Positions 19,314-43,169 of a stretch of 64,000 bases of DNA are shown here, in pieces. The notes under the pieces are model-generated. The model was not told where the DNA came from, did no database searches, and saw only the letters and a list, made by a program, of their open reading frames with translations. Source of the DNA: an uncultured Bacilli bacterium (GTDB taxonomy: Bacteria > Bacillota_I > Bacilli_A > RF39 > UBA660); NCBI GenBank assembly GCA_934090795.1, contig CAKOJQ010000003.1:33252-97251 (forward strand), in the 5' to 3' direction. Numbering within the stretch: position 1 is the stretch's first letter; every line of letters starts with the position of its first letter. Made by a program: the position numbers and the translations under genes.

Positions 19314-20396
19314 TCACATCCAGTTTTTAATTATATATTTTTTAATTATCTTTTTATTATTTTTAAGTTTTCCATTAAGTATATTTAATAAAACATCATC
19401 ATATATCTTTCTTAATTTAGGAGAACCATCCATATCAAGTAATCTCATTATATCATCATTCGTTATTTTTAAATCACTTAATTTATGAATAGGCATTTGT
19501 TTATCCATTTTATTAATTTCTTCTTTACTAAAGCCTAATATTTCTCCACCAACTAAGCATACATATAAACCATACTTAAGTAAAGATAAATTATCTACTT
19601 TTCCATTATCAACAACTATTCTTATTTGTTTAATCATTGTAAGTGATTGTTTCGTAAAAGGATATTTTGAACTAAAATCTATTTGAGCCCATATTCCTAA
19701 AACATCAGATACTTCAACTATTTTATCATACTTTATGTCTAATTCATCTAATAAATCTAGTTCTTTTAAATATTCTAATCCTTTACCCAAATTTTTAGAT
19801 GAAAATATTTTTTCTAATTCTTGTTTTTTTCTTGTGTAACTAATATCCCTTAAAATTTCTTTATTATTTTTAATATATTTAGCAATATCATTATCTAATT
19901 TAAAATTAAGTACTATTGCAAATCTGATTGCTCTAAGTATCCTAACAGGATCATCACTTAATCTTTTATCTGCATCTCCTATTGTCCTAATAATTTTATC
20001 TTGAATGTCCTTAGTACCATTTAAATAATCAAATACTTTTCCATCTCTATTCATACATAATGCATTAATAGTAAAATCTCTTCTTTTTAAATCAACTAAT
20101 AAATTATCTACATAAATTATTGATTTAGGTTTGTGATTAATATATTCTCCATCCATTCTATAAGTAGTTATATCATAATTATATTTTCCAATCTTAAGAG
20201 GAATTGAGCCATAATTATTAACTCCCTTTTTTATTTTAAATACCTTAATAATGTCCTTTGGAAGAGCATTAGTACATATATCTACATCAAAAGACTCTAT
20301 TCCTAGTAAGTAATCTCTAACATATCCACCAACCACATAAGCCTCAAATCCACTTTTTTCTAACTTAAACAATACTTTTTTTATTTCATTATTCAT
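19314..20396 (-). CDS. cca: CCA-adding tRNA nucleotidyltransferase
   Basis: GGYVRDYLLG...DVDICT polymerase-beta head motif; RRDFTINA. Confidence 0.8.
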   Translation of the reverse strand: MNNEIKKVLFKLEKSGFEAYVVGGYVRDYLLGIESFDVDICTNALPKDIIKVFKIKKGVNNYGSIPLKIGKYNYDITTYRMDGEYINHKPKSIIYVDNLLVDLKRRDFTINALCMNRDGKVFDYLNGTKDIQDKIIRTIGDADKRLSDDPVRILRAIRFAIVLNFKLDNDIAKYIKNNKEILRDISYTRKKQELEKIFSSKNLGKGLEYLKELDLLDELDIKYDKIVEVSDVLGIWAQIDFSSKYPFTKQSLTMIKQIRIVVDNGKVDNLSLLKYGLYVCLVGGEILGFSKEEINKMDKQMPIHKLSDLKITNDDIMRLLDMDGSPKLRKIYDDVLLNILNGKLKNNKKIIKKYIIKNWM

Positions 20397-20442: not shown

Positions 20443-20595
20443 TTAACACATATTTCTTGACATTCCTCTACGTATAGATGATCCAACTGCTCTACCAAGC
20501 TCAAATATTGTATTAATAAATCTTGATAAAGCATTAAGAATAGTTCCATTAATCGTTTGTCCACCTGTAATTTTATTAAGTTCTATGTCCTTCAT
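20443..20595 (-). CDS. Bacteriocin-type precursor peptide B (50 aa) with double-glycine leader: MKDIELNKITGG|QTINGTILNALSRFINTIFELGRAVGSSIRRGMSRNMC
   Basis: Translated by hand from the minus strand; absent from the ORF track (<60 aa). 12-aa leader matching the class II consensus (L-12, I-4, GG-1). Start ATG overlaps the stop of peptide A (TAATG coupling). GRAVG GxxxG motif. Confidence 0.6.
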   Translation of the reverse strand: MKDIELNKITGGQTINGTILNALSRFINTIFELGRAVGSSIRRGMSRNMC

Positions 20596-20726
20596 TAGTT
20601 ACATTTAAGAGGACGAATGAAACCATCTACAACACCAATTAAAAAAGTAATTAAGCCACCAATAATAGCTAAAACAGAATAATTAGCTTTTCCACCAGTT
20701 ACCCTATTTAATTCATAATCATTCAT
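20595..20726 (-). CDS. Bacteriocin-type precursor peptide A (43 aa) with double-glycine leader: MNDYELNRVTGG|KANYSVLAIIGGLITFLIGVVDGFIRPLKCN
   Basis: Hand-translated; AAGGAG RBS 10 nt upstream. ATG overlaps the last 8 nt (ATGAATGA) of the C39-ABC transporter gene. Hydrophobic mature part with GxxxG (GVVDG). Both peptides end in a Cys-containing tail. Confidence 0.6.
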   Translation of the reverse strand: MNDYELNRVTGGKANYSVLAIIGGLITFLIGVVDGFIRPLKCN

Positions 20727-26081: not shown

Positions 26082-28553
26082 TTATCTTAACTTACTTTTG
26101 TCATCTAAATTATATTTGTTTATTAACTCTTCAACACTATAACCAAATTTATCTTTAAATTCTTCATTATTCATATAGAAAATTTGGTTTAATTTACCAT
26201 TTTCATCAATAAGATTTATTCCTAACTCCTCACTTAATTTTATTTTAGCAATAAATTCTTTCAATGCACTTAGATGTGTAACTTGTTTATTTAATTCAGT
26301 GTCTATCTTACGCTCTAAACATATATTTTTTATTTGAGTAAAATCTTTTAATAGATTAAATCTCATACCAATTTGTAAAAGCAATTTGCCCTGTTCACTT
26401 TCAGGTAAACATTTTTGTCTTTGCGTATCAATCCATCTTCCTAAATTTATTTTGCCATTAATATCATAATTTTTTCCATCATTGGTTTTAAATTTTACGG
26501 GAATTTCTAAATCTCCGTGTGATTCATAATACTTTTTGGCATATTCATACATTTCTTTCCATGATAATGTAGAATTTTTATTTTGAAATCGCATGCCGAT
26601 TTGTAAAAGGGATTTGCCTTGTTCACTTTTAATTGGGCATAAATATCTTTGATTAGTTATCCATTGACCTAAGTTTATTTTACCATTTGGATCATAAGTT
26701 ACTCCATCATTGGTTTTAAACCATCGCGGTATTTCTAAATTTCCATGTACTTCATAATATTTTTTAGCCAGTTCATACATTTCTTTCCATGATAACGTTG
26801 AATTTTTATTTTCGAATCTCATGTCAATTTGTAAAAGTAATTTTTCCCTTTCACTTTCCGGTAAACATCTCCTTCTTTGCTTTGATATCCATTGACCTAA
26901 GTTTATTTGGCCATTAGGATTATAATTTATTCCATCATTGGTTTTAAATTTTACGGGAATTTCTAAATCTCCGTGTGATTCATAATACTTTTTGGCATAT
27001 TCATACATTTCTTTCCATGATAATGTAGATTTCTTATTTTCAAATCGCATTCCGATTAGTAAAAGTAATTTTCCCCTTTCACTATCAGGTAAACATGATT
27101 GTCTTTGATTTGCTATCCAACATCCTAAATTTATCTTTCCATTTGAATCATATGTAGTTCCATCATTAGTTTTAAACCTTTGAAGTATTTCTAAATCGCC
27201 ATATGTTTCATAATATTTTCTTGCAAGTTCATAATAATCCATCCAAGTTCGATTAATTCTTTTATAATAATCACTTAAGAAATTAAATATATCTATATTC
27301 TGAATTTCAATATTAAATTTAACTTCAGAAATATTGCTTCTTTCGTTGATTCTTCCTGTTTTGTGACTTTGTTCTTTAATTCTATCCTTAATGTTATTTT
27401 CAAGTTCATTCATATAAGTATAATTTCCGGCTAAATCAATAATTACAGGATTATTATTTCGATTAACGGATAAGGCTCTACCTAGTTGTTCAAAGAAAAC
27501 AATATCCGATGATGTTCCTCTTCCCATAATTACTCCATCAACATTTGGAGCATGAATTCCTTCATTATATTGATTTATAGCAAACATGACTCTTAATTTA
27601 TTACTTACATTATTACCACTTAAATCTACATCTTGGTAAAATGCTTCTCTATTTTTCTTTCCATCAGTTCCCATCTCACTTGTTGTTGAATAAAAAGCAA
27701 TATTTTCTTCACATGTTATTTGTTTAAACCATTCAAGTGCTTCTTTTTTAATGGTTTCAATATCGTTTACATCTTTTTCTGAAAATGGTGGACAAAAATA
27801 TATTAGTTTAGAATTTGAATGAATTGTTTCTTTTATAATTTTAGCTATACTTGGTGCTTCAGCTATTCTTTTTTTAGCAGCCTCTAGCTCTTTTTGATTT
27901 TCTTCTTCTAGACCTAAAGAACTTGTTTTATTCTCTAATTTTTTTAGTATTTCTTCTAAACCAATTACACTTGTTTTATAAGTTATATTTTGGGGTAAGA
28001 TACCATCAATTATGGCATCACATAAGTCATATCTACTTATTATTTTATTAGAAAATAATTCATCAGTTTCTGGATTTGCCATATCTCTTTCATATGAAGT
28101 ATTTCGGTCTCTTATAGTATAAGCAGTCATTCCAAATATTTTAATATCAGAATGAGTTTCAATAAATGTTTTAGTACGAGCACCCCATATTGGTGCTCCT
28201 AAATGATGGAATTCATCTAAAATTAATAAATCGCAATCAATATTCTCCATCTCTTCAAGTGATAAATTAATCAAACTTTGATAGGTTCTAAATTCAACAT
28301 TAGCAAAATCTTTTTCTTTACTAAAACCGGATTCTTTAATAATGTTTTCCAGATGTTCTATAATCCCATTTGATGGAACTATATATACAACTTTTTTATC
28401 TTGATTATGATAAGCTAAATTTAAAGCAAGATAGCTTTTACCAGTACCTGTTGCATGAACTATACCGACAACATCTTCACCACTTTGATAAGCATTATCT
28501 ATTTTTCTATATGCTTCTTCATTATGTTTATATAACTCTAAACCTCTATTCAT
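26082..28553 (-). CDS. SF2 helicase (ResIII/DEAD-like) fused to five tandem ~68-aa helicase-associated (HA-like) repeats
   Basis: Walker A HATGTGKSY, DExH LILDEFHH, motif III TAYT, motif VI FEQLGRAL. C-terminal repeats STLSWKEMYEYAKKYYESHGDLEIPVKFKTNDGxNYxxNGKINLGxWIxxQRxxCLPESExGKLLLQIGMRFxNKN x5. Confidence 0.7.
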   Translation of the reverse strand: MNRGLELYKHNEEAYRKIDNAYQSGEDVVGIVHATGTGKSYLALNLAYHNQDKKVVYIVPSNGIIEHLENIIKESGFSKEKDFANVEFRTYQSLINLSLEEMENIDCDLLILDEFHHLGAPIWGARTKTFIETHSDIKIFGMTAYTIRDRNTSYERDMANPETDELFSNKIISRYDLCDAIIDGILPQNITYKTSVIGLEEILKKLENKTSSLGLEEENQKELEAAKKRIAEAPSIAKIIKETIHSNSKLIYFCPPFSEKDVNDIETIKKEALEWFKQITCEENIAFYSTTSEMGTDGKKNREAFYQDVDLSGNNVSNKLRVMFAINQYNEGIHAPNVDGVIMGRGTSSDIVFFEQLGRALSVNRNNNPVIIDLAGNYTYMNELENNIKDRIKEQSHKTGRINERSNISEVKFNIEIQNIDIFNFLSDYYKRINRTWMDYYELARKYYETYGDLEILQRFKTNDGTTYDSNGKINLGCWIANQRQSCLPDSERGKLLLLIGMRFENKKSTLSWKEMYEYAKKYYESHGDLEIPVKFKTNDGINYNPNGQINLGQWISKQRRRCLPESEREKLLLQIDMRFENKNSTLSWKEMYELAKKYYEVHGNLEIPRWFKTNDGVTYDPNGKINLGQWITNQRYLCPIKSEQGKSLLQIGMRFQNKNSTLSWKEMYEYAKKYYESHGDLEIPVKFKTNDGKNYDINGKINLGRWIDTQRQKCLPESEQGKLLLQIGMRFNLLKDFTQIKNICLERKIDTELNKQVTHLSALKEFIAKIKLSEELGINLIDENGKLNQIFYMNNEEFKDKFGYSVEELINKYNLDDKSKLR

Positions 28554-30583: not shown

Positions 30584-32359
30584 TTAAAAAATTTTTAATT
30601 TTGGCTTATCTTTTAATTCAAATCTATCAACTAATTCTTCAATAGATATACCAAATTTTCTTTCAAATTCATCATTGCTCATATAAAATAAAATATTTAA
30701 CTTTCCATTTTTATCTAATAAAGGTAAACCAAACTTAATTGTTAGCTTTACTTTAATATAAAATGCATAAATAGTACCTGTTAATAAAACTTGTTTATTT
30801 TTTTCTAAATCAATTCCTCTTTGAATACAAACTTTTTTTATAGCTTTATAATCATTTATTGTATTAAAACGCATTCCTATTTGTAAAAGTAATATTCCTT
30901 GATTACTTAGAGGAGCACATCTATTTCTTTGATTTATAATCCACTTACCTAAATTTATTCTACTATTATTCGAATATGTAACTCCATCATTTGTTTTAAA
31001 GTTTTGAGGAATTTCTAAATTTCCATATTTTTCATAATAATTTTTTGCAAGTTCATAATAATATCCCCAAATATTATTAATTTTTCTTTGATACTCAACC
31101 AATTTATTATACAAGTCAGTATTAAGAACCTCAATATTCAAAAAAATATCATTTTTAAAATTTCCCTCAATTATACTTTTACTAAATAATTTATTTTTAA
31201 TTGTAGTATCCAATTCATTCATATATTCAAAATTACCAGCCAAATCAATTATCACAGGATTATTATCACGGTTAACAGCTAAAGCTCTACCTAATTGTTC
31301 AAAGAAAATAATATCAGATGATGTTCCTCTTCCCATAATAACACCATCTATATTTGGTGCGTGAATTCCTTCATTATACTGATTAATTGCAAACATGACT
31401 CTTAGCTTATCACTAACATCATTCCCATTTAAATCAATATCATGATAAAAGGCTTCTCTATTTCTTTTACCTTCTATTCCCATGTCACTTGTTGTTGTAT
31501 AAAAGATAATATTTTCTTCATCTGTTACTTGTTTAAACCATTCTATTGCTTCTTGTTTTACAGTCTCGATATCATTCACACCTTTTTCTGAAAATTGAGG
31601 ACAAAAATAAATTATTTTAGAATTTTTATGAATTGTATCTATAATTATCTTATTTATACTTGGAGCATTACCTATCCTTTTTTTAATATTTTCTAATTCT
31701 TCTAGATTATTATCTAAACCTAAAGCCTTAGTTCTTATTTCTAACTTTTTTAATATTTCTTCTAAACCAACAGCACTAGTCTTATAAACTACTTTTTGTG
31801 GTAATACGCCATCAATAATAGCGTCACTAATATCATATCTACTTACTATTTTATTAGAAAATAATTCATCAGTCTCTGGATTAGCCATATCTCTTTCGTA
31901 AGACTTATTTCGATTTCTTATTGTATAAGCAGTCATACCAAACACTTTCATATTTGGATGTGTTTCAATTAATGTCTTGGTACGATCTTCCCAAACAGGA
32001 GCACCTAAATGATGAAATTCATCTAATATTAATAAATCACAATTAATATTTTCTATTTCTTCAAAAGATAAATTAATTAAACTTTGATAAGTTCTAAATT
32101 CTACATTAGCAAAATCTTTTTTAACACTTAGATTAGATTCTTTAATAATATTTTCTAAATGTTCTATAATTCCATTTGAAGGTACCAAATAAACAATTTT
32201 TTTCTTTTGATTATTATAAGCTAAGTTTAATCCAAGATAACTTTTACCAGTACCCGTTGCATGTACTATTCCAACTACATTTTCACCACTTTTATAAGCA
32301 TCTTCTATTTTTTTATAAGTTTCTTTATTATGATTATATAATTTTAAACCTTTATTCAT
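30584..32359 (-). CDS. SF2 helicase (ResIII/DEAD-like) with 1-2 HA-like repeats; paralogue of 26082..28553
   Basis: N-terminal 400 aa ~75-80% identical to helicase 1 (MNKGLKLYNHNKETYKKIEDAYKSGENVVGIVHATGTGKSYLGLNLAY...LILDEFHHLGAP...). C-terminal has a single clear repeat plus a degenerate one. Confidence 0.7.
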   Translation of the reverse strand: MNKGLKLYNHNKETYKKIEDAYKSGENVVGIVHATGTGKSYLGLNLAYNNQKKKIVYLVPSNGIIEHLENIIKESNLSVKKDFANVEFRTYQSLINLSFEEIENINCDLLILDEFHHLGAPVWEDRTKTLIETHPNMKVFGMTAYTIRNRNKSYERDMANPETDELFSNKIVSRYDISDAIIDGVLPQKVVYKTSAVGLEEILKKLEIRTKALGLDNNLEELENIKKRIGNAPSINKIIIDTIHKNSKIIYFCPQFSEKGVNDIETVKQEAIEWFKQVTDEENIIFYTTTSDMGIEGKRNREAFYHDIDLNGNDVSDKLRVMFAINQYNEGIHAPNIDGVIMGRGTSSDIIFFEQLGRALAVNRDNNPVIIDLAGNFEYMNELDTTIKNKLFSKSIIEGNFKNDIFLNIEVLNTDLYNKLVEYQRKINNIWGYYYELAKNYYEKYGNLEIPQNFKTNDGVTYSNNSRINLGKWIINQRNRCAPLSNQGILLLQIGMRFNTINDYKAIKKVCIQRGIDLEKNKQVLLTGTIYAFYIKVKLTIKFGLPLLDKNGKLNILFYMSNDEFERKFGISIEELVDRFELKDKPKLKIF

Positions 32360-32692: not shown

Positions 32693-34330
32693 TTATTTAC
32701 CATCTATTATTTTTTTCTTTATGTCTTTATCAATTGGAGACAATGGTAACTCTAGACCATATTTAATAAATAAATCTTTATGTTTAGACATTTCTATATT
32801 AAATTGTTGTCTTAGTTCATCATTTTTGCCTATTTCATTAAGTAATATTTTTGAATACTCCAAAAATTCTTTTTTATCCCTTTTTAGAAATTTTTTATCT
32901 TTAAAATAACTTAAATCAATTTTAGCAAGACGATGAAATATTAAAGTAAATAAACCTGATAATAGTAAGCCCATTGCTACATTAAGAGTAGTATCTGTGC
33001 TTTCAAATTCTTTAGATTCTAAATCTATCGTTTTATATATTATCTCATAATAATCAACTAATTCTGTATACTTAATTGGCGACTTTGATATATCTATAAT
33101 ATTCTTTTTAGATTCAGGTAATAAATTATTTGATTGGATATATTCAATATATTTTTCCATATCATCGTATCCTAAAAAACTTAAATCATAGGTTTTTGTT
33201 TCTCTTAATTTTAATTTTGCTTCGGCTGCGCCATAATTATATTCTCTACTTTTTCTTCCTTCTTTTTTAGCAGTTTTATCATCTAAAACATGATATTCAA
33301 TAAGATATGTTTGCTCTGGCTTTATTTCATCTACAAATCCAATTATTTCTTTTGTATTAGAAGATGTAACTTGATTTGTAATTGAATTGTATATTTCAGT
33401 ATTAGTTTCATAATAATATGCTGATGTTAATTCCTTAAACCAAGAAAACACTCCAGAAAATATACCTATTGATATTGATAAGGTTATAGCAGTTGAAATT
33501 AGTGATGTAAATAATTTTAATAATTCTTTTTTACATAATTTTTTAAAATATTGTACATTCTGATCAGCCTTTGTATAAGAACTATATGTGTGATAGATTT
33601 GACTGTCACTTTTATCAATTAAAGATAATAAATTTGTCATATCATCTTTGATAGACTCTTCTAATTTTTCTTTTTCATCTCTAAAAACAATTGTTTTTAT
33701 AAAACTATTATCTAGAAGTTCAGCTGGATTCAAATTCTTCTTAGCATTGTAATAACATACTTCAATTTCCGGATATTCAGTTAAATCTATGGTCTTAATA
33801 TATTCTTCAATCATTAAACTTATAAACATAGTATCATTAATATCATACTTACAAAATTCTAATAGTTCGCTTTTTTGATTCAATTTTATCTCTATAAAAA
33901 TAACTTTTAAAATAGCATTATAGAATGGTTCAACTACTTGTTTTTCATCCTCATAATCAACTACTGAAGAATTTCTTATTTTTCTTAAAAGAAGTTTTAT
34001 TTCATCTATTATTTCGTTTAAGTTTTCACTAGTAATATTAACTTTATTTAAATATTTGACATAATAATATACTTTAACATAAATAGTATAACTATCTAAC
34101 TTGGCATCTAACTTTTCTAATTTTCCTGTAGCGTTTATATAGTCATTTATTATAATTCCTTCAAAACTATTTTTCTTAGAACTTTTAATATCATTATTAT
34201 TTTCTATTTTGATACTATCTAATTCTTCTCTTATTTTAGTTACATCAAAACCAATTTTTTCAATCTCTCTTATTTTGTTATCAATTTCAATTAATTTTGC
34301 TTTATAGCTAATTGCGACGTCTGTGTTCAT
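32693..34330 (-). CDS. Two-TM membrane protein with long N-terminal coiled-coil-like domain (paralogue A)
   Basis: 545 aa; AGGAGG RBS. TMs LISTAITLSISIGIFSGVF and LNVAMGLLLSGLFTLIF. N- and C-termini similar to 34334..36010. Confidence 0.45.
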   Translation of the reverse strand: MNTDVAISYKAKLIEIDNKIREIEKIGFDVTKIREELDSIKIENNNDIKSSKKNSFEGIIINDYINATGKLEKLDAKLDSYTIYVKVYYYVKYLNKVNITSENLNEIIDEIKLLLRKIRNSSVVDYEDEKQVVEPFYNAILKVIFIEIKLNQKSELLEFCKYDINDTMFISLMIEEYIKTIDLTEYPEIEVCYYNAKKNLNPAELLDNSFIKTIVFRDEKEKLEESIKDDMTNLLSLIDKSDSQIYHTYSSYTKADQNVQYFKKLCKKELLKLFTSLISTAITLSISIGIFSGVFSWFKELTSAYYYETNTEIYNSITNQVTSSNTKEIIGFVDEIKPEQTYLIEYHVLDDKTAKKEGRKSREYNYGAAEAKLKLRETKTYDLSFLGYDDMEKYIEYIQSNNLLPESKKNIIDISKSPIKYTELVDYYEIIYKTIDLESKEFESTDTTLNVAMGLLLSGLFTLIFHRLAKIDLSYFKDKKFLKRDKKEFLEYSKILLNEIGKNDELRQQFNIEMSKHKDLFIKYGLELPLSPIDKDIKKKIIDGK

Positions 34331-34333
34331 ATT

Positions 34334-36010
34334 TTATTTTCCTCCTAATAATTTTTTCTTGGTAGTACTATCAAGTGCTTCTTTGGGAAGTTTAATTTCC
34401 ATCTGCTCAAATAAATCACCATATTTAGCTGCTTCGATATTAAATAATTCTCTAAGTTTCTCATTTTGACCAATTAACATTAGTAGTTCTTTAGTTTGTT
34501 CTAAAAATAATTTTTTATCATTTTTAAGATTTTCTTTTGCTTTCACACATCTTTTTAAATTCATAATTAGATGAAATTTACTATCATAGTTATAATAATC
34601 ATCTTTAGATAAATCTATATATATAATTCCCGCTTCTATGGCAATAGTTAAAATAGTAAGTATAATAGAAAATGCAATACTATTACTACTTGCTTCGACA
34701 TTTTTGGATTCTAAGTCTATAATATTATATACAATTTCATAATAATCTACATATTCTTGAATAATATCAACATTGTCTTTTATGTTAACAATTTCACTGC
34801 TATTAACAGGTACAGTAGCATTGCTATTCCAATAATCTAAATACCCATTAATATCTTGATATTTTAAATAGCTTAAATCATAAATGGTTTTTCTTCGATA
34901 CCACATAGCATCTTCCTCTGAAATTCCAGAAATATAATTTACTTTAGAATTATAGTCATCAATATCATCATCAGTTAATCTATCATATTTAATAACATAG
35001 GCTGTTTCAGTTGTATCATCAACAATTTCTCGTTCATCACTATGGGTATAAGTATTATCATAAGAACTATATGTATCTTTACTAACATCATATGAATATT
35101 TTTTGAATAACTTTTTGCCTAAAAAATTAAATAAGCTAAAACTAGCTATTGGGATTGATAACGCTATGGCAACTGCAACAATTGATTTCATAAGTTCTTT
35201 AAATTCTAATTTAAATGTTCTAACACTATCTTCATATCTTTTTTCAGTATTAGAATAATCTTTATATTTTTCTTTAATATCTTTTTCAACTGACTCAATA
35301 TTTTTAACCATGTTATTAGCAGGAACTGTTATAACATTTTTTAATCTATCTTTTTCATCTTTAAATACTATTAATTTAAGAAAATCATTATCTAATAGTG
35401 AACTATTACTGCCATTTCTTTTGATTTCATAGTATTTAGCTTCAATTTCGGGATATTTTTCAAAATTAATTTCATCGACTGTTGACTTTATTTTTCTTTC
35501 GATAAATGATTTGTCGATTTCACTAGCTTTGCAAAATTCTAGCAAAGTGCTTTTTCCAGTATAATATATTTCAAAACAAATTACTTTAAAAACACCTGTG
35601 TAAAAAGGCTCAACAATTTTCTTTTCTTCTTCATAATCAATCACTGATGAATTACCAAGACTTCTAAGTAATTTTTTAATTTCACCAACAATTTCACTTA
35701 TTTTATCTTCTTTAATATAATTTTTATCTAAATATTCAGCATAATTATTAACTTTAATATATATTTCAAAAGAATCTAAACTAGAATCTAATTTTTCTAA
35801 TCTTGCCATTGCATTAGAATAATCAGCAATTATAAATCCTTCAAAATTTTTATTTTTAGATATTTTAACTTTTGAATTAGTATCAGTAATAATTTTTTCT
35901 ACTTCTTCTTTAAATGTCTTAACATTAAAACCAATTCTTTCTATTTCTTCTATTTTGTCTTCAACCTGGATTAGTTTAGCTTTATAATTTAGTGCTACAT
36001 CTGTATTCAT
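34334..36010 (-). CDS. Two-TM membrane protein (paralogue B); probable start MNTDVALNYK
   Basis: ORF track's 36100 start is longer. GGGGGAATGAG RBS before the ATG at 36008-10, and the N-terminus aligns with paralogue A (MNTDVAISYKAKLIEID... vs MNTDVALNYKAKLIQVED...). Confidence 0.45.
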   Translation of the reverse strand: MNTDVALNYKAKLIQVEDKIEEIERIGFNVKTFKEEVEKIITDTNSKVKISKNKNFEGFIIADYSNAMARLEKLDSSLDSFEIYIKVNNYAEYLDKNYIKEDKISEIVGEIKKLLRSLGNSSVIDYEEEKKIVEPFYTGVFKVICFEIYYTGKSTLLEFCKASEIDKSFIERKIKSTVDEINFEKYPEIEAKYYEIKRNGSNSSLLDNDFLKLIVFKDEKDRLKNVITVPANNMVKNIESVEKDIKEKYKDYSNTEKRYEDSVRTFKLEFKELMKSIVAVAIALSIPIASFSLFNFLGKKLFKKYSYDVSKDTYSSYDNTYTHSDEREIVDDTTETAYVIKYDRLTDDDIDDYNSKVNYISGISEEDAMWYRRKTIYDLSYLKYQDINGYLDYWNSNATVPVNSSEIVNIKDNVDIIQEYVDYYEIVYNIIDLESKNVEASSNSIAFSIILTILTIAIEAGIIYIDLSKDDYYNYDSKFHLIMNLKRCVKAKENLKNDKKLFLEQTKELLMLIGQNEKLRELFNIEAAKYGDLFEQMEIKLPKEALDSTTKKKLLGGK

Positions 36011-36029
36011 AAACTCATTCCCCCAATAA

Positions 36030-36080
36030 ATTAAGATATATATTACCATACTTTTAATGAAAAAGCAAACATTTTTTTGA
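36030..36080 (-). promoter_or_regulatory. Sigma-A-type promoter: A-tract + TTGCTT -35, 17-nt spacer, TAATAT -10 (minus strand)
   Basis: Reverse complement reads aaaaaaATGTTTGCTttttcattaaaagtatggTAATATatatc...GGGGGAatgagtttATG. The same AAAAAATGTTTGCTTTTT block recurs at 45721-40 and 49561-80, and as a variant at 32500-20. Confidence 0.4.
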
Positions 36081-36181
36081 TTTATAATATATAAAAACAC
36101 AAAAGAAAATCTAATGTGTTTAAATTATAAAATATAACATATTACGACCTATTTTACCCATCCTAAAATAACAATAACTGT

Positions 36182-38356
36182 TTACGCCCTAGTTGGATTA
36201 TTATCTATTTCAATATTTACTTTACTATTTAATTTATAAATATCATCTAAGTATTTTAAATGTTCTTTAACCAAATTATAGGCTTTATATTTTAATATTA
36301 TTTGAAATCTATAAACATTATTTATTTTAAACATTGCAGCAGTTGTTGGTCCTAAAATTATAACATTAGTAAGTTTTTTATCTAAATAACTTTTAACTTT
36401 AGATATTTCTTTAGATGCCTCATTATAATCTTTGGATGCAATTAAAATTTTAGTTATATAAAAGTATGGCGGATATTTAAGAATTTTTCTAATATTCATT
36501 TCATAATTATAAAGAGATTCATAATCATTATTTTTAGCATATTCTATTATTTTGTTATCACTATTAAATGTTTGAATTACAGCATCTGATTTATCACTTG
36601 CTCTTCCAGCTCTACCAATTGTTTGAGTAATAAGTTCAAAAGTATTTTCTCCACTTCTAAAATCAGGAATATTTAAAGAATCATCTGCATTAATTATGGC
36701 TGCTAATGTTACTTTAGGAAAATCAAAACCTTTACTAATCATTTGAGTACCAACAATTATGCTTACATCTTCGCTTTCTATTTTAGCTATAATTTCGTCT
36801 TGGCTACCTTTTTTACTGGTCGTATCAGCATCCATTCTAACTGTTTTAACATTATATCTTTTATTAATTTCTTCTTCTAACTTTTCAGTACCAAGTCCAA
36901 AATTAGTTAAAGATTTTTCCATACAACTTGGACAGGTATCGGGATTATTAATGGTATATCCACAATAATGGCATCTTAAATTATTACTTGTTTTATGATA
37001 AGTTAAAGATATTTCACAATGAGGGCATTTAAAGGTATAACCACAATTTTTACAATTAACAATAGTTGAAAACCCTCTTCGATTAAGCATTAATAAAACT
37101 TGTTCATTTGCTTTTAGTTTCTCCCTTATTTTTTGATCTAAATATTCACTTATAATCATATTTCTTTTTTTATATTCTTCTTGCATATCAACTATTTTGG
37201 TAGTAGGCATTACACTTTTTCCAATTCGTTTTGTTAAAGATAGTAAAGTATAAACCCTCTTTTTAGCTCTAGCCATTGTTTCAAGTGAAGGCGTTGCAGA
37301 ACCAAGTACAACTGGACAGTTATGATATTTACTTCTTAAAAGAGCAATATTTCTAGCATGATATCTAGGATTACTATCTTGTTTATAGTTACTACTTTGT
37401 TCTTCATCTAATATGATAATTCCAATTTTTTCAAAAGGAACAAATATAGCACTTCTAGTTCCAACAACAATATGAACATCTCCATTTAAAATTTTATGAT
37501 ATTCATCATATTTTTCACCATCTGATAAAGCACTATGGAAAATAGCAACATCACTACCAAATCTTGAATAAAATCTTGAAACTATTTGATGAGTTAAACT
37601 AATTTCCGGAACAAGAAGTATTGCACATTTACCTGTTTTAACTACTTTTTCAATTAACTCCATGTACACCTCAGTTTTGCCTGATCCAGTTACCCCATGA
37701 AGTAAAAATATTTCACTTTTATTAAAACTTGCCTCTACTTTTTCTACTACTTCTTTTTGTTCTAAAGTTAGTTCTTTTTTCTTAAAACTATTATTATCAA
37801 TATTTATACGATATTTATTAACTTTATTTATTTTAATAATACTTTCATTAACAAGTTTTTTAACTATATCTAAACTATATTCTTTTTTTAAGATTTTTTC
37901 ATTATTTAAAAGTCTATTAAGTAGTTCAATTTGTTTAATACTTCTTTTATTATTGTTAGTATAATTAATAGCAGAATCTTTATTTATTAATTCTAAATAT
38001 TCATCATATTTTTGATAACTACTTTTAATTGTTTTTATTTTCATAGAAGATGGAAGCATTGCTTGATATGCTTGAATAAGAGAACAAAGGGTTAATTCTT
38101 TTAATGTTTTACCAAGCTCTAATAACTCTTTATTTAAACAAAAGTATTCATCTGTAATACTTGCTATTTCTTTTAAATTATTGCTATTACAATTATTAGT
38201 TATTTCTAAGACAAATCCATTAATTAAGGTATTTCTAAAAGGAACTTTTACTTTCATTCCAACTTTTAAATTATCTTTTAAAATATCAGGAATAATATAA
38301 GTAAAGGTTTGATCTAGTGCTTTAGCACCATATTCAACTAAAATATTAGCATACAC
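36182..38356 (-). CDS. priA: Primosomal protein N' (replication restart helicase PriA)
   Basis: Walker A LLHGVTGSGKTEVY, DEEQ box, Cys4 zinc-finger cluster CKNCGYTFKCPHCEISLTYHKTSNNLRCHYCGY...CPSC. Confidence 0.85.
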   Translation of the reverse strand: MYANILVEYGAKALDQTFTYIIPDILKDNLKVGMKVKVPFRNTLINGFVLEITNNCNSNNLKEIASITDEYFCLNKELLELGKTLKELTLCSLIQAYQAMLPSSMKIKTIKSSYQKYDEYLELINKDSAINYTNNNKRSIKQIELLNRLLNNEKILKKEYSLDIVKKLVNESIIKINKVNKYRINIDNNSFKKKELTLEQKEVVEKVEASFNKSEIFLLHGVTGSGKTEVYMELIEKVVKTGKCAILLVPEISLTHQIVSRFYSRFGSDVAIFHSALSDGEKYDEYHKILNGDVHIVVGTRSAIFVPFEKIGIIILDEEQSSNYKQDSNPRYHARNIALLRSKYHNCPVVLGSATPSLETMARAKKRVYTLLSLTKRIGKSVMPTTKIVDMQEEYKKRNMIISEYLDQKIREKLKANEQVLLMLNRRGFSTIVNCKNCGYTFKCPHCEISLTYHKTSNNLRCHYCGYTINNPDTCPSCMEKSLTNFGLGTEKLEEEINKRYNVKTVRMDADTTSKKGSQDEIIAKIESEDVSIIVGTQMISKGFDFPKVTLAAIINADDSLNIPDFRSGENTFELITQTIGRAGRASDKSDAVIQTFNSDNKIIEYAKNNDYESLYNYEMNIRKILKYPPYFYITKILIASKDYNEASKEISKVKSYLDKKLTNVIILGPTTAAMFKINNVYRFQIILKYKAYNLVKEHLKYLDDIYKLNSKVNIEIDNNPTRA

Positions 38357-38422
38357 AATAAATACCTTCTTTCTAACTAATTTATATTATAGCAAATAAA
38401 AACATAAATAGTTTAAATAATT

Positions 38423-38983
38423 CTATCTATGTTTTAAATTTGAATTATTACCTAAAGAATATGTTTTAGGTTTTGATTCTTGGACTTCAGTTTGTTCATT
38501 AATTTCATCTAGTGTTTCGCCTATTTTATCATTTCCATATAATTCTTGGAATTTTAAAAATTTTTGTTTTTCTTCTTCTAAATAAGCAATCATTTCTTCA
38601 GGAGTCATATTATAATAATTTGTTTTTTCTTTAGATTCAATACATGCTTCTTCACTAGAAAATATTAATTTTTGTTTTGGTTCTTCTATTTTAATAATTT
38701 CCCCATTTTCAATAGCTTCTTGTTTTATTTCTTGATACATTTTTTCATAAGCAATAATAAAATAAAATGGTGCAACAATATTTACGATTGGAGTTAAACA
38801 TTCCAGTATAACTCCAAAAAAAGATACCAATTTTTCTGAAAAAGTTTCTGATTTTTCAACAACAGCCTTATATCCTTCTCTTTCTAATCTATTATTCATT
38901 GCCTTATTAGTCAATTCACCAGTAACATATGTTAAAAATGATGAAATTAACTCAATAATTAAAAGTATTTGTAATAATGACAT
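38423..38983 (-). CDS. Small 2-TM membrane protein, tandem family member 1 (186 aa)
   Basis: MSLLQILLIIELISSFLTYV TM1, second TM, then conserved C-terminal tail ...MTPEEMIAYLEEEKQKFLKFQELYGNDKIGETLDEINEQTEVQESKPKTYSLGNNSNLKHR. Confidence 0.55.
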   Translation of the reverse strand: MSLLQILLIIELISSFLTYVTGELTNKAMNNRLEREGYKAVVEKSETFSEKLVSFFGVILECLTPIVNIVAPFYFIIAYEKMYQEIKQEAIENGEIIKIEEPKQKLIFSSEEACIESKEKTNYYNMTPEEMIAYLEEEKQKFLKFQELYGNDKIGETLDEINEQTEVQESKPKTYSLGNNSNLKHR

Positions 38984-39010
38984 ATTCTTTCCTGCCTTTC
39001 AATGTTTTGT

Positions 39011-39039
39011 ATTATAATATATTTTATGGATAAACACAA
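39011..39039 (-). promoter_or_regulatory. Sigma-A promoter of family member 1: TTGTGT-17-TATAAT (minus strand)
   Basis: Reverse complement: catttagTTGTGTttatccataaaatatatTATAATacaaaacattgaaAGGCAGGAAAgaatATG. Confidence 0.5.
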
Positions 39040-39230
39040 CTAAATGTTTACAAATGTGTTTTAATTGAACGGGATATATTGATCAAATTTTTTGCCAATT
39101 TTTATAAGTTAAAGTGTTGTGTAATTTTAATTATTGTGAAGTAAAACTAATAAATATTTAAAAAAATATTTTACTGCTAATTTATATAAAATCAAAATAA
39201 CAAATAAAAACATAAATAGTTTAAATAATT

Positions 39231-39779
39231 CTATCTATGTTTTAAATTTGAATTATTACCTAAAGAATATGTTTTAGGTTTTGATTCTTGGACTTCAGTT
39301 TGTTCATTAATTTCATCTAGTGTTTCGCCTATTTTATCATTTCCATATAATTCTTGGAATTTTAAAAATTTTTGTTTTTCTTCTTCTAAATAAGCAATCA
39401 TTTCATCAGGAGTCATTGTTTTATAATCAATTTTTTCTTCTGATTCGTCTTTAATATTTTCATTTTCTTCTCCACCAAAGAATATTTCATCATTTATATA
39501 ATTTTTTCGTACATTTGGATATATTTTTTCAAAATTAAATATTATTATCCATGGGTACACCATATTAAATATAGGAATAATTGATATAAATAGTGTTTTT
39601 AGTATACTTTCAAGTATACTTTTAAAATTTTTATAAAATATTATTTGTGTTCCTGGTGCAAACCTATTTAACTCGTTTTTTATTCTTTTAAGAGTTATTG
39701 CCATAAATATTTCTTGAGTTACAGATGTAAAAATTGCAGACACAGCATATATTATTAAAAGTATTTTTAATAATGACAT
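39231..39779 (-). CDS. Small 2-TM membrane protein, tandem family member 2 (182 aa)
   Basis: Same architecture. The C-terminal 63 aa are identical to member 1, and the last ~200 nt plus ~60 nt of 3' flank are near-identical at DNA level. Confidence 0.55.
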   Translation of the reverse strand: MSLLKILLIIYAVSAIFTSVTQEIFMAITLKRIKNELNRFAPGTQIIFYKNFKSILESILKTLFISIIPIFNMVYPWIIIFNFEKIYPNVRKNYINDEIFFGGEENENIKDESEEKIDYKTMTPDEMIAYLEEEKQKFLKFQELYGNDKIGETLDEINEQTEVQESKPKTYSLGNNSNLKHR

Positions 39780-39806
39780 AACTTTTCCTTCCTTTCATTG
39801 GCTTGT

Positions 39807-39835
39807 ATTATAGCATATTTTCAAGTTGAATACAA
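39807..39835 (-). promoter_or_regulatory. Sigma-A promoter of family member 2: TTGTAT-17-TATAAT
   Basis: Reverse complement: cttttagTTGTATtcaacttgaaaatatgcTATAATacaagccaatgaaAGGAAGGAAAAgttATG. Confidence 0.5.
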
Positions 39836-40045
39836 CTAAAAGTTCGTAATATAATATTTAATTTTTCCGTTCCTTTTTGATTTTTCATTAATTTAATTCT
39901 TTATTTTTATTAATTTTCAATAAATTAAGGTATTTTGTAATTTTAACTATTGTGAAGTAATATTAATAAACATTTAAAAAATATTTTACAGATAATTTAT
40001 ATAAAAACAAAATAACAAATAAAAACATAAATAGTTTAAATAATT

Positions 40046-40582
40046 CTATTTATGTTTTAAATTTGAATTATTACCTAAAGAATATGTTTTAGGTTTTGAT
40101 TCTTGGACTTCAGTTTGTTCATTAATTTCATCTAGTGTTTCGCCTATTTTATCATTTCCATATAATTCTTGGAATTTTAAAAATTTTTGTTTTTCTTCTT
40201 CTAAATAAGCAATCATTTCTTCAGGAGTCATTGTTTTATAATTAATTTCTTTTTCTGATTCGTATTTAATATTTTCATTTTCTTCTTCATTAAATAATAT
40301 TTCATCATTTATATATTCTTTTCTTATCGTTTGATATATTTCCTCACGATAAGATATTAAAAAACATGGATATACTATATGGCATATAGGAATAATCGAT
40401 AAAACAATTAATAATTTTAGTACACTTTCAAAATCTCTAAAATTTACTTGCGATCCGTCTGTGACACTATCTAAATCTTTTTTTATTCTTTTTATAGTTA
40501 TTATGTTAAAAATTTCGTTAGTTGCAAGTGCAAAAATTGTGCATACACAATAAGTTATTATTTTTATTATTAATAATGACAT
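40046..40582 (-). CDS. Small 2-TM membrane protein, tandem family member 3 (178 aa)
   Basis: Same architecture; divergent TM region; conserved tail ending ...NLKHK. Confidence 0.55.
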   Translation of the reverse strand: MSLLIIKIITYCVCTIFALATNEIFNIITIKRIKKDLDSVTDGSQVNFRDFESVLKLLIVLSIIPICHIVYPCFLISYREEIYQTIRKEYINDEILFNEEENENIKYESEKEINYKTMTPEEMIAYLEEEKQKFLKFQELYGNDKIGETLDEINEQTEVQESKPKTYSLGNNSNLKHK

Positions 40583-40606
40583 AACTTTCCCCCTTCATTG
40601 CTTTGT

Positions 40607-40635
40607 ATTATAGCATATTTTTTGAATAAATGCAA
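40607..40635 (-). promoter_or_regulatory. Sigma-A promoter of family member 3: TTGCAT-17-TATAAT
   Basis: Reverse complement: acagTTGCATttattcaaaaaatatgcTATAATacaaagcaatgaaGGGGGAAAgttATG. Confidence 0.5.
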
Positions 40636-40846
40636 CTGTATGTTCGCAATATAACGTGTGATTTTTTCAGGCCAATTTGATTTTTTCACTAATCTAATTC
40701 TTTATTTTTATTAATTTTCGATAAATTAAGGTATTTTGTAATTTTAACTATTGTGAAGTAATATTAATAAACATTTAAAAAATATTTTACAGATAATTTA
40801 TATAAAAACAAAATAACAAATAAAAACATAAATAGTTTAAATAATT

Positions 40847-41380
40847 CTATTTATGTTTTAAATTTGAATTATTACCTAAAGAATATGTTTTAGGTTTTGA
40901 TTCTTGGGCTTCAGTTTGTTCATTAATTTTATCAAGTGTTTCTCCTAATTTTTCGTTTCCATACAATTCTTGGAATTTTAAAAATTTTTGCTTTTCTTCT
41001 TCTAAATAAGCAATCTTTTCATCAGAAGTCATTGTTTTATAATCAATTTTTTCTTCCGATTCGTCTTTAATATTTTCATTTTCTTCTCCACCAAAGAATG
41101 TTTCATCATCTATATATTTTTTCCTTATCACTGGATATATTTTTTCATAATTAGATATCAAAAACAATGGATATATTATATTGAATATAGGAATAATTGA
41201 TAAAAATAATGATTTTGGTATACTTTTAAAATTCATAAAACTTATTTGTGATTCGTCTGCGACTCTATTTAAATCTTTTTTTATTCTTTTCATAGTTATT
41301 GTGACAAATATTTCGCAAATTACAAATGTGAAAATTGCAGATTCACCATAAAATATTAATAGCATTTTTAATAATGACAT
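40847..41380 (-). CDS. Small 2-TM membrane protein, tandem family member 4 (177 aa)
   Basis: Same architecture; a few substitutions in the conserved tail (TSDEKIAY, NEKLGETLDKINEQTEAQ). Confidence 0.55.
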   Translation of the reverse strand: MSLLKMLLIFYGESAIFTFVICEIFVTITMKRIKKDLNRVADESQISFMNFKSIPKSLFLSIIPIFNIIYPLFLISNYEKIYPVIRKKYIDDETFFGGEENENIKDESEEKIDYKTMTSDEKIAYLEEEKQKFLKFQELYGNEKLGETLDKINEQTEAQESKPKTYSLGNNSNLKHK

Positions 41381-41405
41381 AACATTTCCCCCTTCATTGT
41401 TTCGT

Positions 41406-41434
41406 ATTATAGCATATTTTCATGTTGAATACAA
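41406..41434 (-). promoter_or_regulatory. Sigma-A promoter of family member 4: TTGTAT-17-TATAAT
   Basis: Reverse complement: cttttagTTGTATtcaacatgaaaatatgcTATAATacgaaacaatgaaGGGGGAAAtgttATG. Confidence 0.5.
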
Positions 41435-41575
41435 CTAAAAGTTCGTAATATAATATTTAATTTTTTCCGTTTCTTTTTGATTTTTCATTAATTTAATTCT
41501 TTATTTTTGCCAATTATTTCCACTAGATATATACAAACAATTGTTTTAATATATTCTCGTAAGGAGAAATGTTTA

Positions 41576-42844
41576 ATGAATAATAATTTATATTCAAATA
41601 GAAATATTATTGCAATTGATTTAAAAAGTTTTTTTGCTTCTGTTGAATGTATAGAAAGAGGTCTTGATCCATTTACTACTGCTCTAGTTGTTTGTGATCC
41701 AACTAGAAATGGCGCTATTACTTTGGCAGTTACGCCTTTTTTAAAAAATTTAGGAGTTCCATCTAGAGGAAGAGCCTATGATTTACCTAAAAACATTAAA
41801 ATATTTAAAGCACCACCTCGTATGAGCCTATATATTCAAAAAAGCCGTGAGGTTTTAAGCATTTATTTAGAGTATGTTGCTAAAGAAGATATTCATGTCT
41901 ACTCAATTGATGAAGTGTTTTTAGATGTTACTAATTACCTTCATATGTATAATATGACTGATTATGAACTTGCTCAAACTATTATAAATGATATAAAGAA
42001 AAGAACTGGACTTACCACAACAGCCGGAATTGGTCCAAATATATTACTTGCTAAACTCTCAATGGATATTGAAGCTAAACACGTTCAAAATAACATTGCT
42101 AAATGGACTTATGATGATGTTAAAAATAAATTATGGTCTATCACTCCCTTATCAAAAATGTGGAGCATTGGGCCTCGTATGGAACGTAATTTAAATAAGC
42201 TAGGTCTTTATACAGTAGGAGATATTGCCAAATATGATAAAAATAAATTAAAAGATAAATATGGTATTATTGGTATTGAGCTATGGGAGCATGCTAATGG
42301 GATTGATAACGCTAGAATAAGTGATTTTAATAATTATATTCCAAAAGAAAATTCAATTAGTCATAGTCAAATTTTATTTAAAGATTATAATCAAAATAAC
42401 ATAATTCTTATTATAAGAGAAATGGTAAGTGTTTTAGTTAAAAGGTTAAGAACGGCTCATAAACAAACTTCTTCAATTGGTTTAGGAATCGGTTACTCTA
42501 AGGAAACTGGTGGTGGTTTTTATCACGTAACTAAGTTAGATACTAGTACATTTAAAGAAGATGAAATAGCTGATATCTGCTTAAACATGTTTGATAAATA
42601 TTATGAAGAATATATGCCAATTAGAAAAGTTTCAATTTCTTTTGGTAGATTATCTGATGATACCGGAATCCAGCTTAATATATTTGAATCATTTGAAAAA
42701 GAAAAAACAAACAAAAATGGTGAAATTGTTATAGATGAGCTTAATAACAAATATGGTGCTAATATGATTTTGAAAGCATCTAGCTTACTTGAAGATTCTA
42801 CTATTAGAATGCGTAATGGGAAGATAGGAGGTCACAATGCCTAA
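41576..42844 (+). CDS. Y-family (translesion) DNA polymerase, UvrX/YqjW/DinB-like
   Basis: IIAIDLKSFFASVECIERGLDP, SIDEVFLDVT and GIGPN... palm motifs. AAGGAG RBS before the ATG at 41576 (the ORF track's 41507 start is longer). Confidence 0.8.
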   Translation: MNNNLYSNRNIIAIDLKSFFASVECIERGLDPFTTALVVCDPTRNGAITLAVTPFLKNLGVPSRGRAYDLPKNIKIFKAPPRMSLYIQKSREVLSIYLEYVAKEDIHVYSIDEVFLDVTNYLHMYNMTDYELAQTIINDIKKRTGLTTTAGIGPNILLAKLSMDIEAKHVQNNIAKWTYDDVKNKLWSITPLSKMWSIGPRMERNLNKLGLYTVGDIAKYDKNKLKDKYGIIGIELWEHANGIDNARISDFNNYIPKENSISHSQILFKDYNQNNIILIIREMVSVLVKRLRTAHKQTSSIGLGIGYSKETGGGFYHVTKLDTSTFKEDEIADICLNMFDKYYEEYMPIRKVSISFGRLSDDTGIQLNIFESFEKEKTNKNGEIVIDELNNKYGANMILKASSLLEDSTIRMRNGKIGGHNA

Positions 42845-43169
42845 TAGAAACGCGATTAAATGGGCTCCTTTTAATTCAGTTATTAACGGCAACTATATAA
42901 TGAGTATGATAGTTAAAGAAAAATCTAGAATAGTTAAACCTACTTTATCAGAAGAACAAATAAATGAGTTTGAAAATTTAGTTAAAGAATCATTAATTAA
43001 TAAAATACCTTTAGAATTTACTATTTACGATAATGGATATACTAAAAATATAAAAGGAACCGTTACTAAAATAGACAGTTCCTTAAATAAAATATTTTTA
43101 AACTATAATAATCATATCTTCTTTTGTGAAATAATGAATATTAAAAAACTAGATTATTTCTTATCATAA
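42837..43169 (+). CDS. yolD: YolD-like protein (UmuD-analogue partner of Firmicutes Y-family polymerases)
   Basis: 110 aa; NAIKWAPFNSV...KPTLSEEQINEFENLV...FTIYDNGYTKNIKGTVTKID matches the YolD family (IKWQPF...KPELSEDQQEE...). Overlaps the polymerase stop by 8 nt. Confidence 0.65.
   Translation: MPNRNAIKWAPFNSVINGNYIMSMIVKEKSRIVKPTLSEEQINEFENLVKESLINKIPLEFTIYDNGYTKNIKGTVTKIDSSLNKIFLNYNNHIFFCEIMNIKKLDYFLS

Follow-up and report, generated by a model that had tools for sequence, protein, structure and literature searches.

We analysed a 64,000-nt stretch of DNA (hereafter the window; positions 33,252 to 97,251 of contig CAKOJQ010000003.1, assembly GCA_934090795.1, G+C content 24.8%) from an uncultured Bacilli bacterium, and found that four complete paralogous genes for small membrane proteins, g1 to g4, stand there as a tandem array on the minus strand at 38357..41515, between priA and a Y-family DNA polymerase gene. 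Comparison with near-identical strains gave firm support both to the anatomy of this array, which varies from strain to strain, and to recombination between its units as the mechanism that remodels it. The four proteins are diverged representatives of a so far unnamed family, which is made up of small membrane proteins of uncultured low-G+C gut Firmicutes. Our best explanation, taken whole, is a recombining array of protective units, which we put forward with somewhat less than even confidence. Recombining paralogue arrays are a kind of locus already known; what is new here is the unnamed family and the lack of a linked toxin.

The array begins with the duplicated promoter block that lies upstream of g4 and ends at the base just before the start codon of priA, as delimited by the repeat families D1-D4 and by alignment of the units. 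It holds four intact open reading frames (ORFs), all on the minus strand: g4 (40847-41380, 177 aa, N-terminal type B), g3 (40046-40582, 178 aa, type C), g2 (39231-39779, 182 aa, type A) and g1 (38423-38983, 186 aa, type D). The ORFs and a repeat search confirmed the four-copy, ~800-bp array with gene starts at 38983, 39779, 40582 and 41380 that had been described in an earlier note on this DNA. The period was 796-815 nt, and a 300-nt block recurred four times at spacings of 808, 815 and 801 nt; Tandem Repeats Finder, for which 500 is the longest period handled, did not report the array. In each unit of about 800 bp, a gene of about 180 codons is preceded by a sigma-A-like promoter and a strong ribosome-binding site (RBS), and its stop codon is covered by an A/U-rich hairpin with a U-tract. 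The homology blocks shared by the units cover the last 192 coding nt with the 3' flank, the promoter block and short stretches within the N-terminal part, and about 135 nt from upstream of g4 are duplicated in each inter-unit spacer (repeat families D4 and D11). No RNA family was found by Rfam anywhere in the window.

The units proved to be constant at their ends and variable between them. When the four units were aligned and scanned in 30-column windows, mean pairwise identity was 0.44-0.69 over the N-terminal coding part and 0.90-1.00 over the final ~190 nt of coding sequence and the ~60 nt of flank next to it, so the partition claimed from the letters alone was upheld and divergence was not equal along the unit. 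Units 2 to 4 remained 0.90-1.00 identical for about 60 nt further into the 3' flank, and the promoter block had a mean identity of 0.73-0.80 across units. At least two nucleotide blocks of high similarity are common to all units, with the variable region between them; this region is about 350-380 nt long and not 330 as first estimated. The 5' regions had been called near-identical, which fits units 2 and 4 (87-100% identical) but not unit 1, only 63-83% identical to the others. In pairwise nucleotide comparison the last 64 codons and 3' flank were 91-99% identical, against 54-83% for the N-terminal parts. The constant tail-coding blocks, located by tblastn on the minus strand, lie at 40850..41041 in g4, 40049..40240 in g3, 39234..39425 in g2 and 38426..38617 in g1. 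The block of g4 is 91-94% identical to the other three, and that of g3 is 97-99% identical to those of g1 and g2.

Synonymous and nonsynonymous divergence (dS and dN) were calculated by the Nei-Gojobori method on a codon alignment. In the N-terminal part, dS was 0.18-0.89 and dN/dS 0.56-1.45 over all pairs. Among the tails of g1-g3, dS was 0-0.015 (0 between g3 and g2, 0.015 between g3 and g1), values at which dN/dS is not meaningful; between the tail of g4 and those of g1-g3, dS was about 0.16-0.18 and dN/dS 0.28-0.42. Since the tails are identical at silent sites too, recent gene conversion or duplication, and not purifying selection alone, accounts for their likeness. The earlier proposal of concerted evolution by gene conversion was thus strengthened by the low tail dS among g1-g3 beside the N-terminal values, and also by a hybrid gene in a related strain, described below.

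About 15 near-identical strains were compared, in which the flanking proteins were 94-100% identical to those of the window (PriA 95-97%, the polymerase 96-97%, a PP-loop protein 98-100%). A collection of 5.8 billion sequences held 15 g2-like proteins, all metagenomic, and in a genome collection the locus was found in four species-level 'uncultured Bacilli bacterium' metagenome-assembled genomes from Hadza gut samples. Every contig carried its cassettes between the same polymerase and priA. Read from the polymerase to the priA side, the window has the four cassettes B-C-A-D; contig L037 has three, a B/C hybrid followed by A and D; L007 and L008 have two, D-A, and L006 has two, E-A; L001-L005 and L038-L040 have a single B cassette, orthologous to g4, and L009 and L010 have a single E cassette. 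Upstream of the first cassette in L007 and L008, the 3' flank of a cassette was found without its gene.

Compared in 30-nt windows, the hybrid gene of L037 differed from g4 by 0-2 mismatches per window over nt 1-90, and from nt 91 to 360 it had no mismatch to g3; its 3' nine-tenths matched g3 exactly. By this pattern of matches it is precisely what an unequal crossover between neighbouring g4 and g3 genes of a window-like array yields, with the loss of one unit. Close strains thus differ by copy number and by a mosaic gene, both of which are explained by recombination between units. Homologous recombination at the shared blocks homogenises and swaps the tails, alters the copy number (1-4) and order of the cassettes, and makes hybrid genes.

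The N-terminal parts fell into five discrete types (A-E), 90-99% identical in nucleotides within a type across strains and only 47-83% identical between types. For example, the N-terminal part of g4 was 98% identical to that of L001, that of g1 was 95% identical to the first cassette of L007 (L007a), and type E parts were 96-99% identical to each other; that of g2 was 96-99% identical to type A of L006, L007 and L008 and reached 99% with L007b and L008b. The tails, which were 81-100% identical overall, did not track the types: between g4 and L001 the N-terminal identity of 98% went with a tail identity of 84%. Pooled over orthologous cassette pairs, the proportion of synonymous differences (pS) rose from 0.056 for N-terminal parts to 0.16 for tails. 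As the tails do not follow type and their pS exceeds that of the N-terminal part, they must have a different, mosaic history. The N-terminal membrane modules are, on this comparison of strains, old and stable types that have stayed nearly unchanged.

Within types, the ratio of nonsynonymous to synonymous differences (pN/pS) was 0.16-0.38 for A, 0.33-0.76 for E and about 0.85 for D; the value of 1.37 for type B came from a single pair with 7 differences. Ongoing diversifying selection on the membrane part, as suggested in the earlier note, was not borne out by these within-type ratios (0.16-0.9 apart from the one pair), nor by the conservation of each type across strains. Between types pN/pS was 0.92, which is compatible with relaxed or episodic selection after duplication and is no proof of positive selection. 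In every cassette of every strain the ORF, promoter and RBS were intact.

Two further observations were made on the cassettes. Type E cassettes are preceded by 820-950 nt without a family ORF (L006 9048-10000; L009 9182-10000; L010 5797-6643); this region showed no convincing ORF and only weak, partly inverted matches to the tail-coding block, and it may be a degraded cassette or something else. In L036 (218-2275) a 685-aa ORF, P0016, joins the C-terminal two-thirds of a type A cassette to Asn/Lys-rich sequence that carries a protein-kinase-like glycine loop. We rejected P0016 as a true fusion: the contig that carries it is 2.4 kb long with 1.5x coverage, and the ORF probably arose by chimeric assembly.

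The promoter hexamers reported earlier were all present with exact 17-nt spacers. On the minus strand, g4 is preceded by TTGTAT and a TG-extended TATAAT (41406..41434), g3 by TTGCAT and a TG-extended TATAAT (40607..40635), g2 by TTGTAT and a TG-extended TATAAT (39807..39835), and g1 by TTGTGT and a TATAAT without the TG extension (39011..39039); the extended -10 element reads TGCTATAAT in three of the four units. A generic scan of this A+T-rich window found 61 promoter-like hexamer pairs where 63.2 were expected by chance. At such a density, support for the promoters comes from conservation and not from the hexamer match, and the sites of g4 and g2 are kept in the orthologous cassettes of other strains.

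Each gene ends in a 13-bp A/U-rich, terminator-like hairpin that had been overlooked in the earlier note. Its arms, AAAACATARATAG and CTATTTATGTTTT, have 11 nt between them and span the stop codon, and a U-rich tract follows. The hairpins lie on the minus strand at 40823..40859 (g4), 40022..40058 (g3), 39207..39243 (g2) and 38399..38435 (g1); those of g1, g2 and g3 were obtained by folding as well as from the sequence (for g2, z = -3.1 in a 141-nt flank), and that of g4 was read from the sequence and by likeness to the units folded. All four units had the hairpin, and so did the end of every cassette found in the related strains; a generic terminator scan did not report it because that scan needs at least three G-C pairs in the stem. 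Given a promoter-like site and a hairpin in each unit, independent expression of each is plausible. After the hairpin of g1, and of this unit only, TGCTATAAT replaces the U-tract (TG at 38393-38394, TATAAT at 38386-38391, 30 nt before the priA start) and may be a promoter of priA.

All four window proteins have two hydrophobic segments followed by a tail of 102-116 aa with 14-17 Lys or Arg and 24-25 Asp or Glu residues. From the N-terminus on, a transmembrane (TM) helix is followed by a second hydrophobic stretch, a helix-kink-helix whose Pro and Asn are invariant; a disordered acidic linker then leads to an amphipathic helix, conserved as the motif Y-x-x-M-T-x-E-E-x-I-A-Y-L-E-x-E-K. An AlphaFold2 model built on a 15-sequence alignment was poor, with a predicted local distance difference test score (pLDDT) of 57.7; with a 78-sequence alignment the score for g1 was 72.6, and residues 1-100, for which the model is usable, reached 80-94. 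In this model the N-terminal part consists of helix 3-35, strand 38-40, helices 48-62 and 65-77 kinked at the invariant Pro, helix 79-92 and strand 96-98; the disordered acidic linker follows, then helices 128-149 and 152-164 and a disordered end. By hydropathy scan, 40 of 107 family members had exactly two hydrophobic segments, and in these 40 the loop between the segments held a mean of 7.1 Lys or Arg residues against 2.0 in the 15 residues after the second segment. According to the positive-inside rule, a loop so rich in Lys and Arg should be cytoplasmic. Strands 38-40 and 96-98, the model's sole strands, would pair with each other, since types A-C have lost both of their motifs. With such pairing, what follows the second hydrophobic segment would be on the loop side of the membrane, which would make that segment a re-entrant hairpin and place the tail in the cytoplasm.

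A profile search of 1.84 billion representative proteins returned 265 relatives at E <= 1e-3 and 89 at E <= 1e-10, mostly of 150-200 aa. The family consensus runs MLLNIYLGTTAISWAT..KLKREGYK..SIPVYNILN..GDKxYEY..LLExGKIYKP, a variable acidic linker, YxEMTxEEKLAYLExEKExL and a basic C-terminus. The ancestral motifs are kept by type E and by g1 (type D; REGYK, PIVNI), and types A-C (g2, g3 and g4) have lost REGYK and GKIYK. No model of Pfam, NCBIfam or PHROG matched the four window proteins, 41 family members or 10 further ones, the source databases gave the family no name beyond 'hypothetical protein', and a literature search on its motifs found no paper. A sequence search of the PDB found nothing below E = 0.1, and BFVD gave one sub-threshold structural match, to an uncharacterised phage protein (E 0.11).

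The family gene was single-copy in each of nine other genomic contexts. A near-consensus promoter (TTGACA, 17 nt, TGnTATAAT or TATACT) about 60 nt upstream of the gene and a AAAGGGGG RBS were present in all nine unrelated contexts (L012, L015, L017, L021, L023, L025, L027, L029 and L034); the family gene is a self-contained unit, with probably constitutive expression. In these contexts the promoter spacer is partly conserved as AATATATGTAAATATG, which might be an operator. One family copy stands directly after a Mob_Pre relaxase gene, beside a helix-turn-helix repressor and two serine recombinases, and from this gene order it is the cargo of a mobilisable element. Fragments of a DUF1016 nuclease lay near the family gene in two contexts, and nothing else was common to the remote loci; a tblastx comparison of their flanks gave mostly low-complexity noise.

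The closest parallels in evolutionary mode are the esaG/DUF600 genes of Staphylococcus aureus, tipC of Streptococcus and the lpl genes of S. aureus, which form strings of non-identical paralogues with similarity blocks over gene ends and intergenic regions; recombination at these blocks deletes or expands genes, makes mosaics and shifts repertoires among close strains (PMC9484751). The present array likewise has homology blocks, a copy number of 1-4 and an exact hybrid gene. It differs in that the window proteins lack the DUF600, DUF443 and TipC domains, that the membrane module varies and the C-terminal tail is constant, that each unit has its own promoter and hairpin, and that homologues in other taxa are single-copy and not linked to toxins. 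Class II bacteriocin immunity proteins, such as those for lactococcin G and enterocin 1071, are small, membrane-acting and constitutively made, and their known genes lie directly downstream of the bacteriocin genes. The window proteins are likewise small and are predicted to be membrane-acting and constitutive, and a class IIb peptide pair with an exporter lies in the same window. Phage superinfection-exclusion or 'moron' genes also encode small membrane proteins and have their own promoter and terminator; here, too, an autonomous promoter-RBS-gene-hairpin unit recurs patchily in variable contexts, including a mobilisable element. An integron-like cassette array, in which promoterless cassettes are flanked by attC sites beside an integrase, was rejected, given that each unit has its own promoter-like site and a terminator-like hairpin, that the units are homologous to each other, and that no recombinase domain was found among the scanned neighbours.

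A protective role at the membrane, either immunity to a membrane-acting peptide or toxin or the exclusion of phage, is possible for these proteins, and we hold it tentatively, well below even confidence; within it, bacteriocin or toxin immunity appeared roughly twice as likely as phage exclusion. Each unit would constitutively make one specificity variant of a stand-alone protective membrane factor. Its membrane module would recognise a membrane-inserted antagonist or the receptor of one (a two-peptide bacteriocin, another membrane toxin or, less likely, a phage component), and the shared tail would be the common part contacting a conserved partner. A strain with several types would be protected more broadly, its repertoire being set by recombination. 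The evidence for such a role is circumstantial: a stand-alone gene for a small membrane protein, with its own consensus promoter in nine unrelated contexts; a distribution that is patchy, does not depend on context and extends to a mobilisable element; differences among near-identical strains in whether a gene is present and in how many copies; and the maintenance of several intact, divergent types, in a mode like that of the immunity arrays of type VII secretion systems (PMC9484751).

A candidate antagonist is encoded in the same window by a class IIb-type two-peptide bacteriocin operon (20443-22704, minus strand). It consists of a Peptidase_C39 ABC exporter gene (20719-22704) followed by genes for two 50-aa peptides with double-glycine leaders (20595-20747 and 20443-20595), all on the minus strand, with predicted mature sequences KANYSVLAIIGGLITFLIGVVDGFIRPLKCN and QTINGTILNALSRFINTIFELGRAVGSSIRRGMSRNMC. 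The first peptide (20595-20747) scored 22.2 bits with TIGR03949 (cut-off 21.5), and its match to the lactococcin G-beta family was below the cut-off. No immunity gene was found beside the operon; the gene downstream of it (19314-20396) looks like one for a CCA-adding enzyme by sequence. UppP is the receptor of lactococcin-G-type bacteriocins, and in L025 (4782-5588) a BacA/UppP gene stands 1.4 kb upstream of the family gene, a single case that may be coincidence.

A number of results weigh against protection. The bacteriocin operon is separated from the array by 17.7 kb and at least 12 genes, so the direct adjacency of known class II immunity genes to their peptide genes (here 20443-20747) is lacking, and neither bacteriocin peptides nor a C39 exporter occurred in the flanks of the other loci compared. 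Pfam scans of the neighbours found no toxin-like gene between the polymerase and priA or within ~10 kb, and the neighbour scans found no type VII secretion, phage, bacteriocin or recombinase gene adjoining the array; unlike esaG and tipC, it has no LXG, EsaD or TelC toxin beside it as a cognate partner. The window proteins and 41 family members matched no Pfam or NCBIfam immunity family, and PADLOC, run on the four window proteins only, gave no match. By tblastn the family had no match in 50,697 phage or 72,556 plasmid records, and IMG/VR held no relative, so the array, which has no prophage context or PHROG match either, differs in these respects from moron genes. An all-against-all ORF comparison of the neighbours in six representative contexts found no shared neighbour, and a PADLOC scan of the neighbours of remote homologues gave generic helicase-motif matches only and no convincing defence gene. 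The N-terminal module is the best conserved part of the family, with 20 invariant positions among 24 sequences; arms-race immunity proteins usually show no such conservation. Finally, some strains with one cassette have type B and others type E, which shows that no single type is indispensable. The immunity or exclusion function proposed in the earlier note has gained no direct support, with no toxin adjoining the array and no match in defence, phage or immunity profile libraries. A known anti-phage defence or superinfection-exclusion protein was rejected as an identity, as PADLOC, PHROG and IMG/VR gave no match or relative and the neighbours only helicase-motif matches.

An ordinary membrane role, for instance as a scaffold or regulator with a cytoplasmic docking helix, is the main rival reading and, in our judgement, only slightly less likely than protection. 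Unequal crossover would then have amplified the gene, types A-D would have drifted under relaxed selection with their tails kept alike by recombination, and copy number would be near-neutral. Such a role agrees with the single copy at every other locus examined and the chromosomal housekeeping surroundings, with the strongly conserved N-terminal module and consensus constitutive promoter, and with the lack of any toxin or defence linkage. The earlier note would have counted single-copy, conserved homologues of known function against its view; the homologues elsewhere are indeed single-copy with a conserved N-terminal module, but none has a known function. Drift, for its part, agrees with the between-type pN/pS of 0.92, close to neutrality, with the within-type value of ~0.85 for D, and with the absence from types A-C of both ancestral strand motifs, REGYK and GKIYK. 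However, the pN/pS of type A across strains (0.16-0.38) shows clear purifying selection, which together with the ORFs, promoters and RBSs intact everywhere indicates that the derived copies are maintained and not decaying. Each lineage, moreover, has the family gene in another genomic context, and a mobilisable element carries one copy, which is unusual for a core physiological gene.

We consider it very unlikely that the array encodes holin-like or otherwise toxic small membrane proteins that would make lesions in the membrane (a holin, type I toxin or SOS division inhibitor), with the polymerase neighbour pointing to SOS control. The short N-terminus, two hydrophobic segments and ~100-aa charged tail do fit the form of holins, which have 1-4 TM segments and a charged C-terminal tail, the hydrophobic helices carry conserved polar residues (N4, Y6, T9, T10, S13, P59, N62), and g4 is divergent from the Y-family polymerase/YolD operon. 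But a consensus sigma-A promoter and strong RBS imply constitutive high expression, which is incompatible with a lethal product, and 150-200 aa is large for a holin. Neither an endolysin nor an antitoxin gene nor a prophage lies nearby, the holin models of PHROG and Pfam and the phage genomes gave no match, and the remote homologues are not beside SOS genes. No GAAC-N4-GTTC LexA box with at most one mismatch was found in 38300-41640, which covers the array and the polymerase intergenic region; the whole window held 5 such matches against 8.9 expected by chance. A conserved CGAAC..AGTTG element at -35 was rejected as a LexA site, since its spacing and right half do not fit, and a division inhibitor of the YneA/SidA type was rejected in the lack of a LexA operator at the promoters. 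The least likely account, which we regard as extremely improbable, is that misassembly of a strain mixture inflated a one- or two-copy locus to four. Metagenome contigs of the locus are often short or broken, several end within a few kb of the array, and 1-4 copies are reported. Yet the N-terminal parts are only 54-83% identical, which makes them four separate genes rather than strain variants of a single one; every type also turns up in independent assemblies between the same flanks, L037 independently has A then D after the hybrid of the first two, and the unit junctions are regular with intact ORFs.

The surroundings of the array are fixed at both ends. Downstream, priA (36182..38356, minus strand) was recognised by its Pfam PriA domains and forms the boundary in all strains by synteny; upstream, the genes for the Y-family DNA polymerase (IMS) and a YolD-like protein, assigned by Pfam, diverge from the array (41573..43169, plus strand). 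Housekeeping genes stand further out, among them those for a cysteine desulfurase-type Aminotran_5 protein, the PP-loop ATPase, a CTP_transf_like cytidylyltransferase, YceG and RuvX. The leader of the polymerase gene, in the interval from g4 to the polymerase start, holds a perfect 12-nt palindrome (AAACAATTGTTT, 41529-41540) that is kept in all strains; it resembles a degenerate GAAC-N4-GTTC LexA box, from which two outer positions differ.

Directly after priA, two paralogous proteins of 588 aa (34334-36100) and 545 aa (32693-34330), about 40% identical, are encoded on the minus strand. By eye they have a charged, probably coiled-coil N-terminal region, two hydrophobic segments and a Tyr/Asp/Asn-rich middle domain; neither had a Pfam, NCBIfam, PADLOC or PHROG match. 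One or two such genes occur per strain, and their identity across strains (84-92%) is below that of the flanking genes. Downstream of the 545-aa gene lie paralogous ResIII helicase genes with Helicase-associated (HA) domains (26082-28553 and 30584-32359, minus strand), to which PADLOC gave weak, partial matches (type IV restriction and Cas3 helicase motifs). In L007 (11323-13892), and at the same place in L008 and L010, a 2.5-kb insertion lies between priA and the 588-aa gene; it holds a 304-aa ORF and minus-strand ORF fragments that by eye resemble remnants of an IS30-type transposase. Such insertions in some strains indicate that the region downstream of priA is also variable. Elsewhere in the window, a 1094-aa protein with an ALK/LTK glycine-rich domain (PF12810, E 1.6e-99) is encoded at 60674-63958 on the minus strand.

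The locus offers a compact natural case of homology-block recombination shaping paralogue repertoires in near-identical uncultured strains of the human gut, in which an exact hybrid gene documents the crossover. Its genes belong to a family with hundreds of gut-metagenome representatives and no Pfam, NCBIfam or PHROGs model, which travels as self-contained expression units. If immunity or exclusion is the true function, the family would be a new class of orphan protection genes in gut Firmicutes, and a simple system for specificity encoded in transmembrane helices. A more specific and bolder form of this idea, which we consider improbable, is that the family is a new and widespread class of immunity proteins that stand alone and act against peptide toxins inserting into the membrane, for instance two-peptide bacteriocins of the lactococcin G kind; specificity would lie in helix-helix contacts of the membrane module, the tail helix would engage a common partner or receptor, and the array would be a toxin-unlinked orphan repertoire, particular to the strain and put together by recombination. 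Should the proteins not be protective, some other conserved function at the membrane of spore-forming gut bacteria would still be a candidate role for the family.

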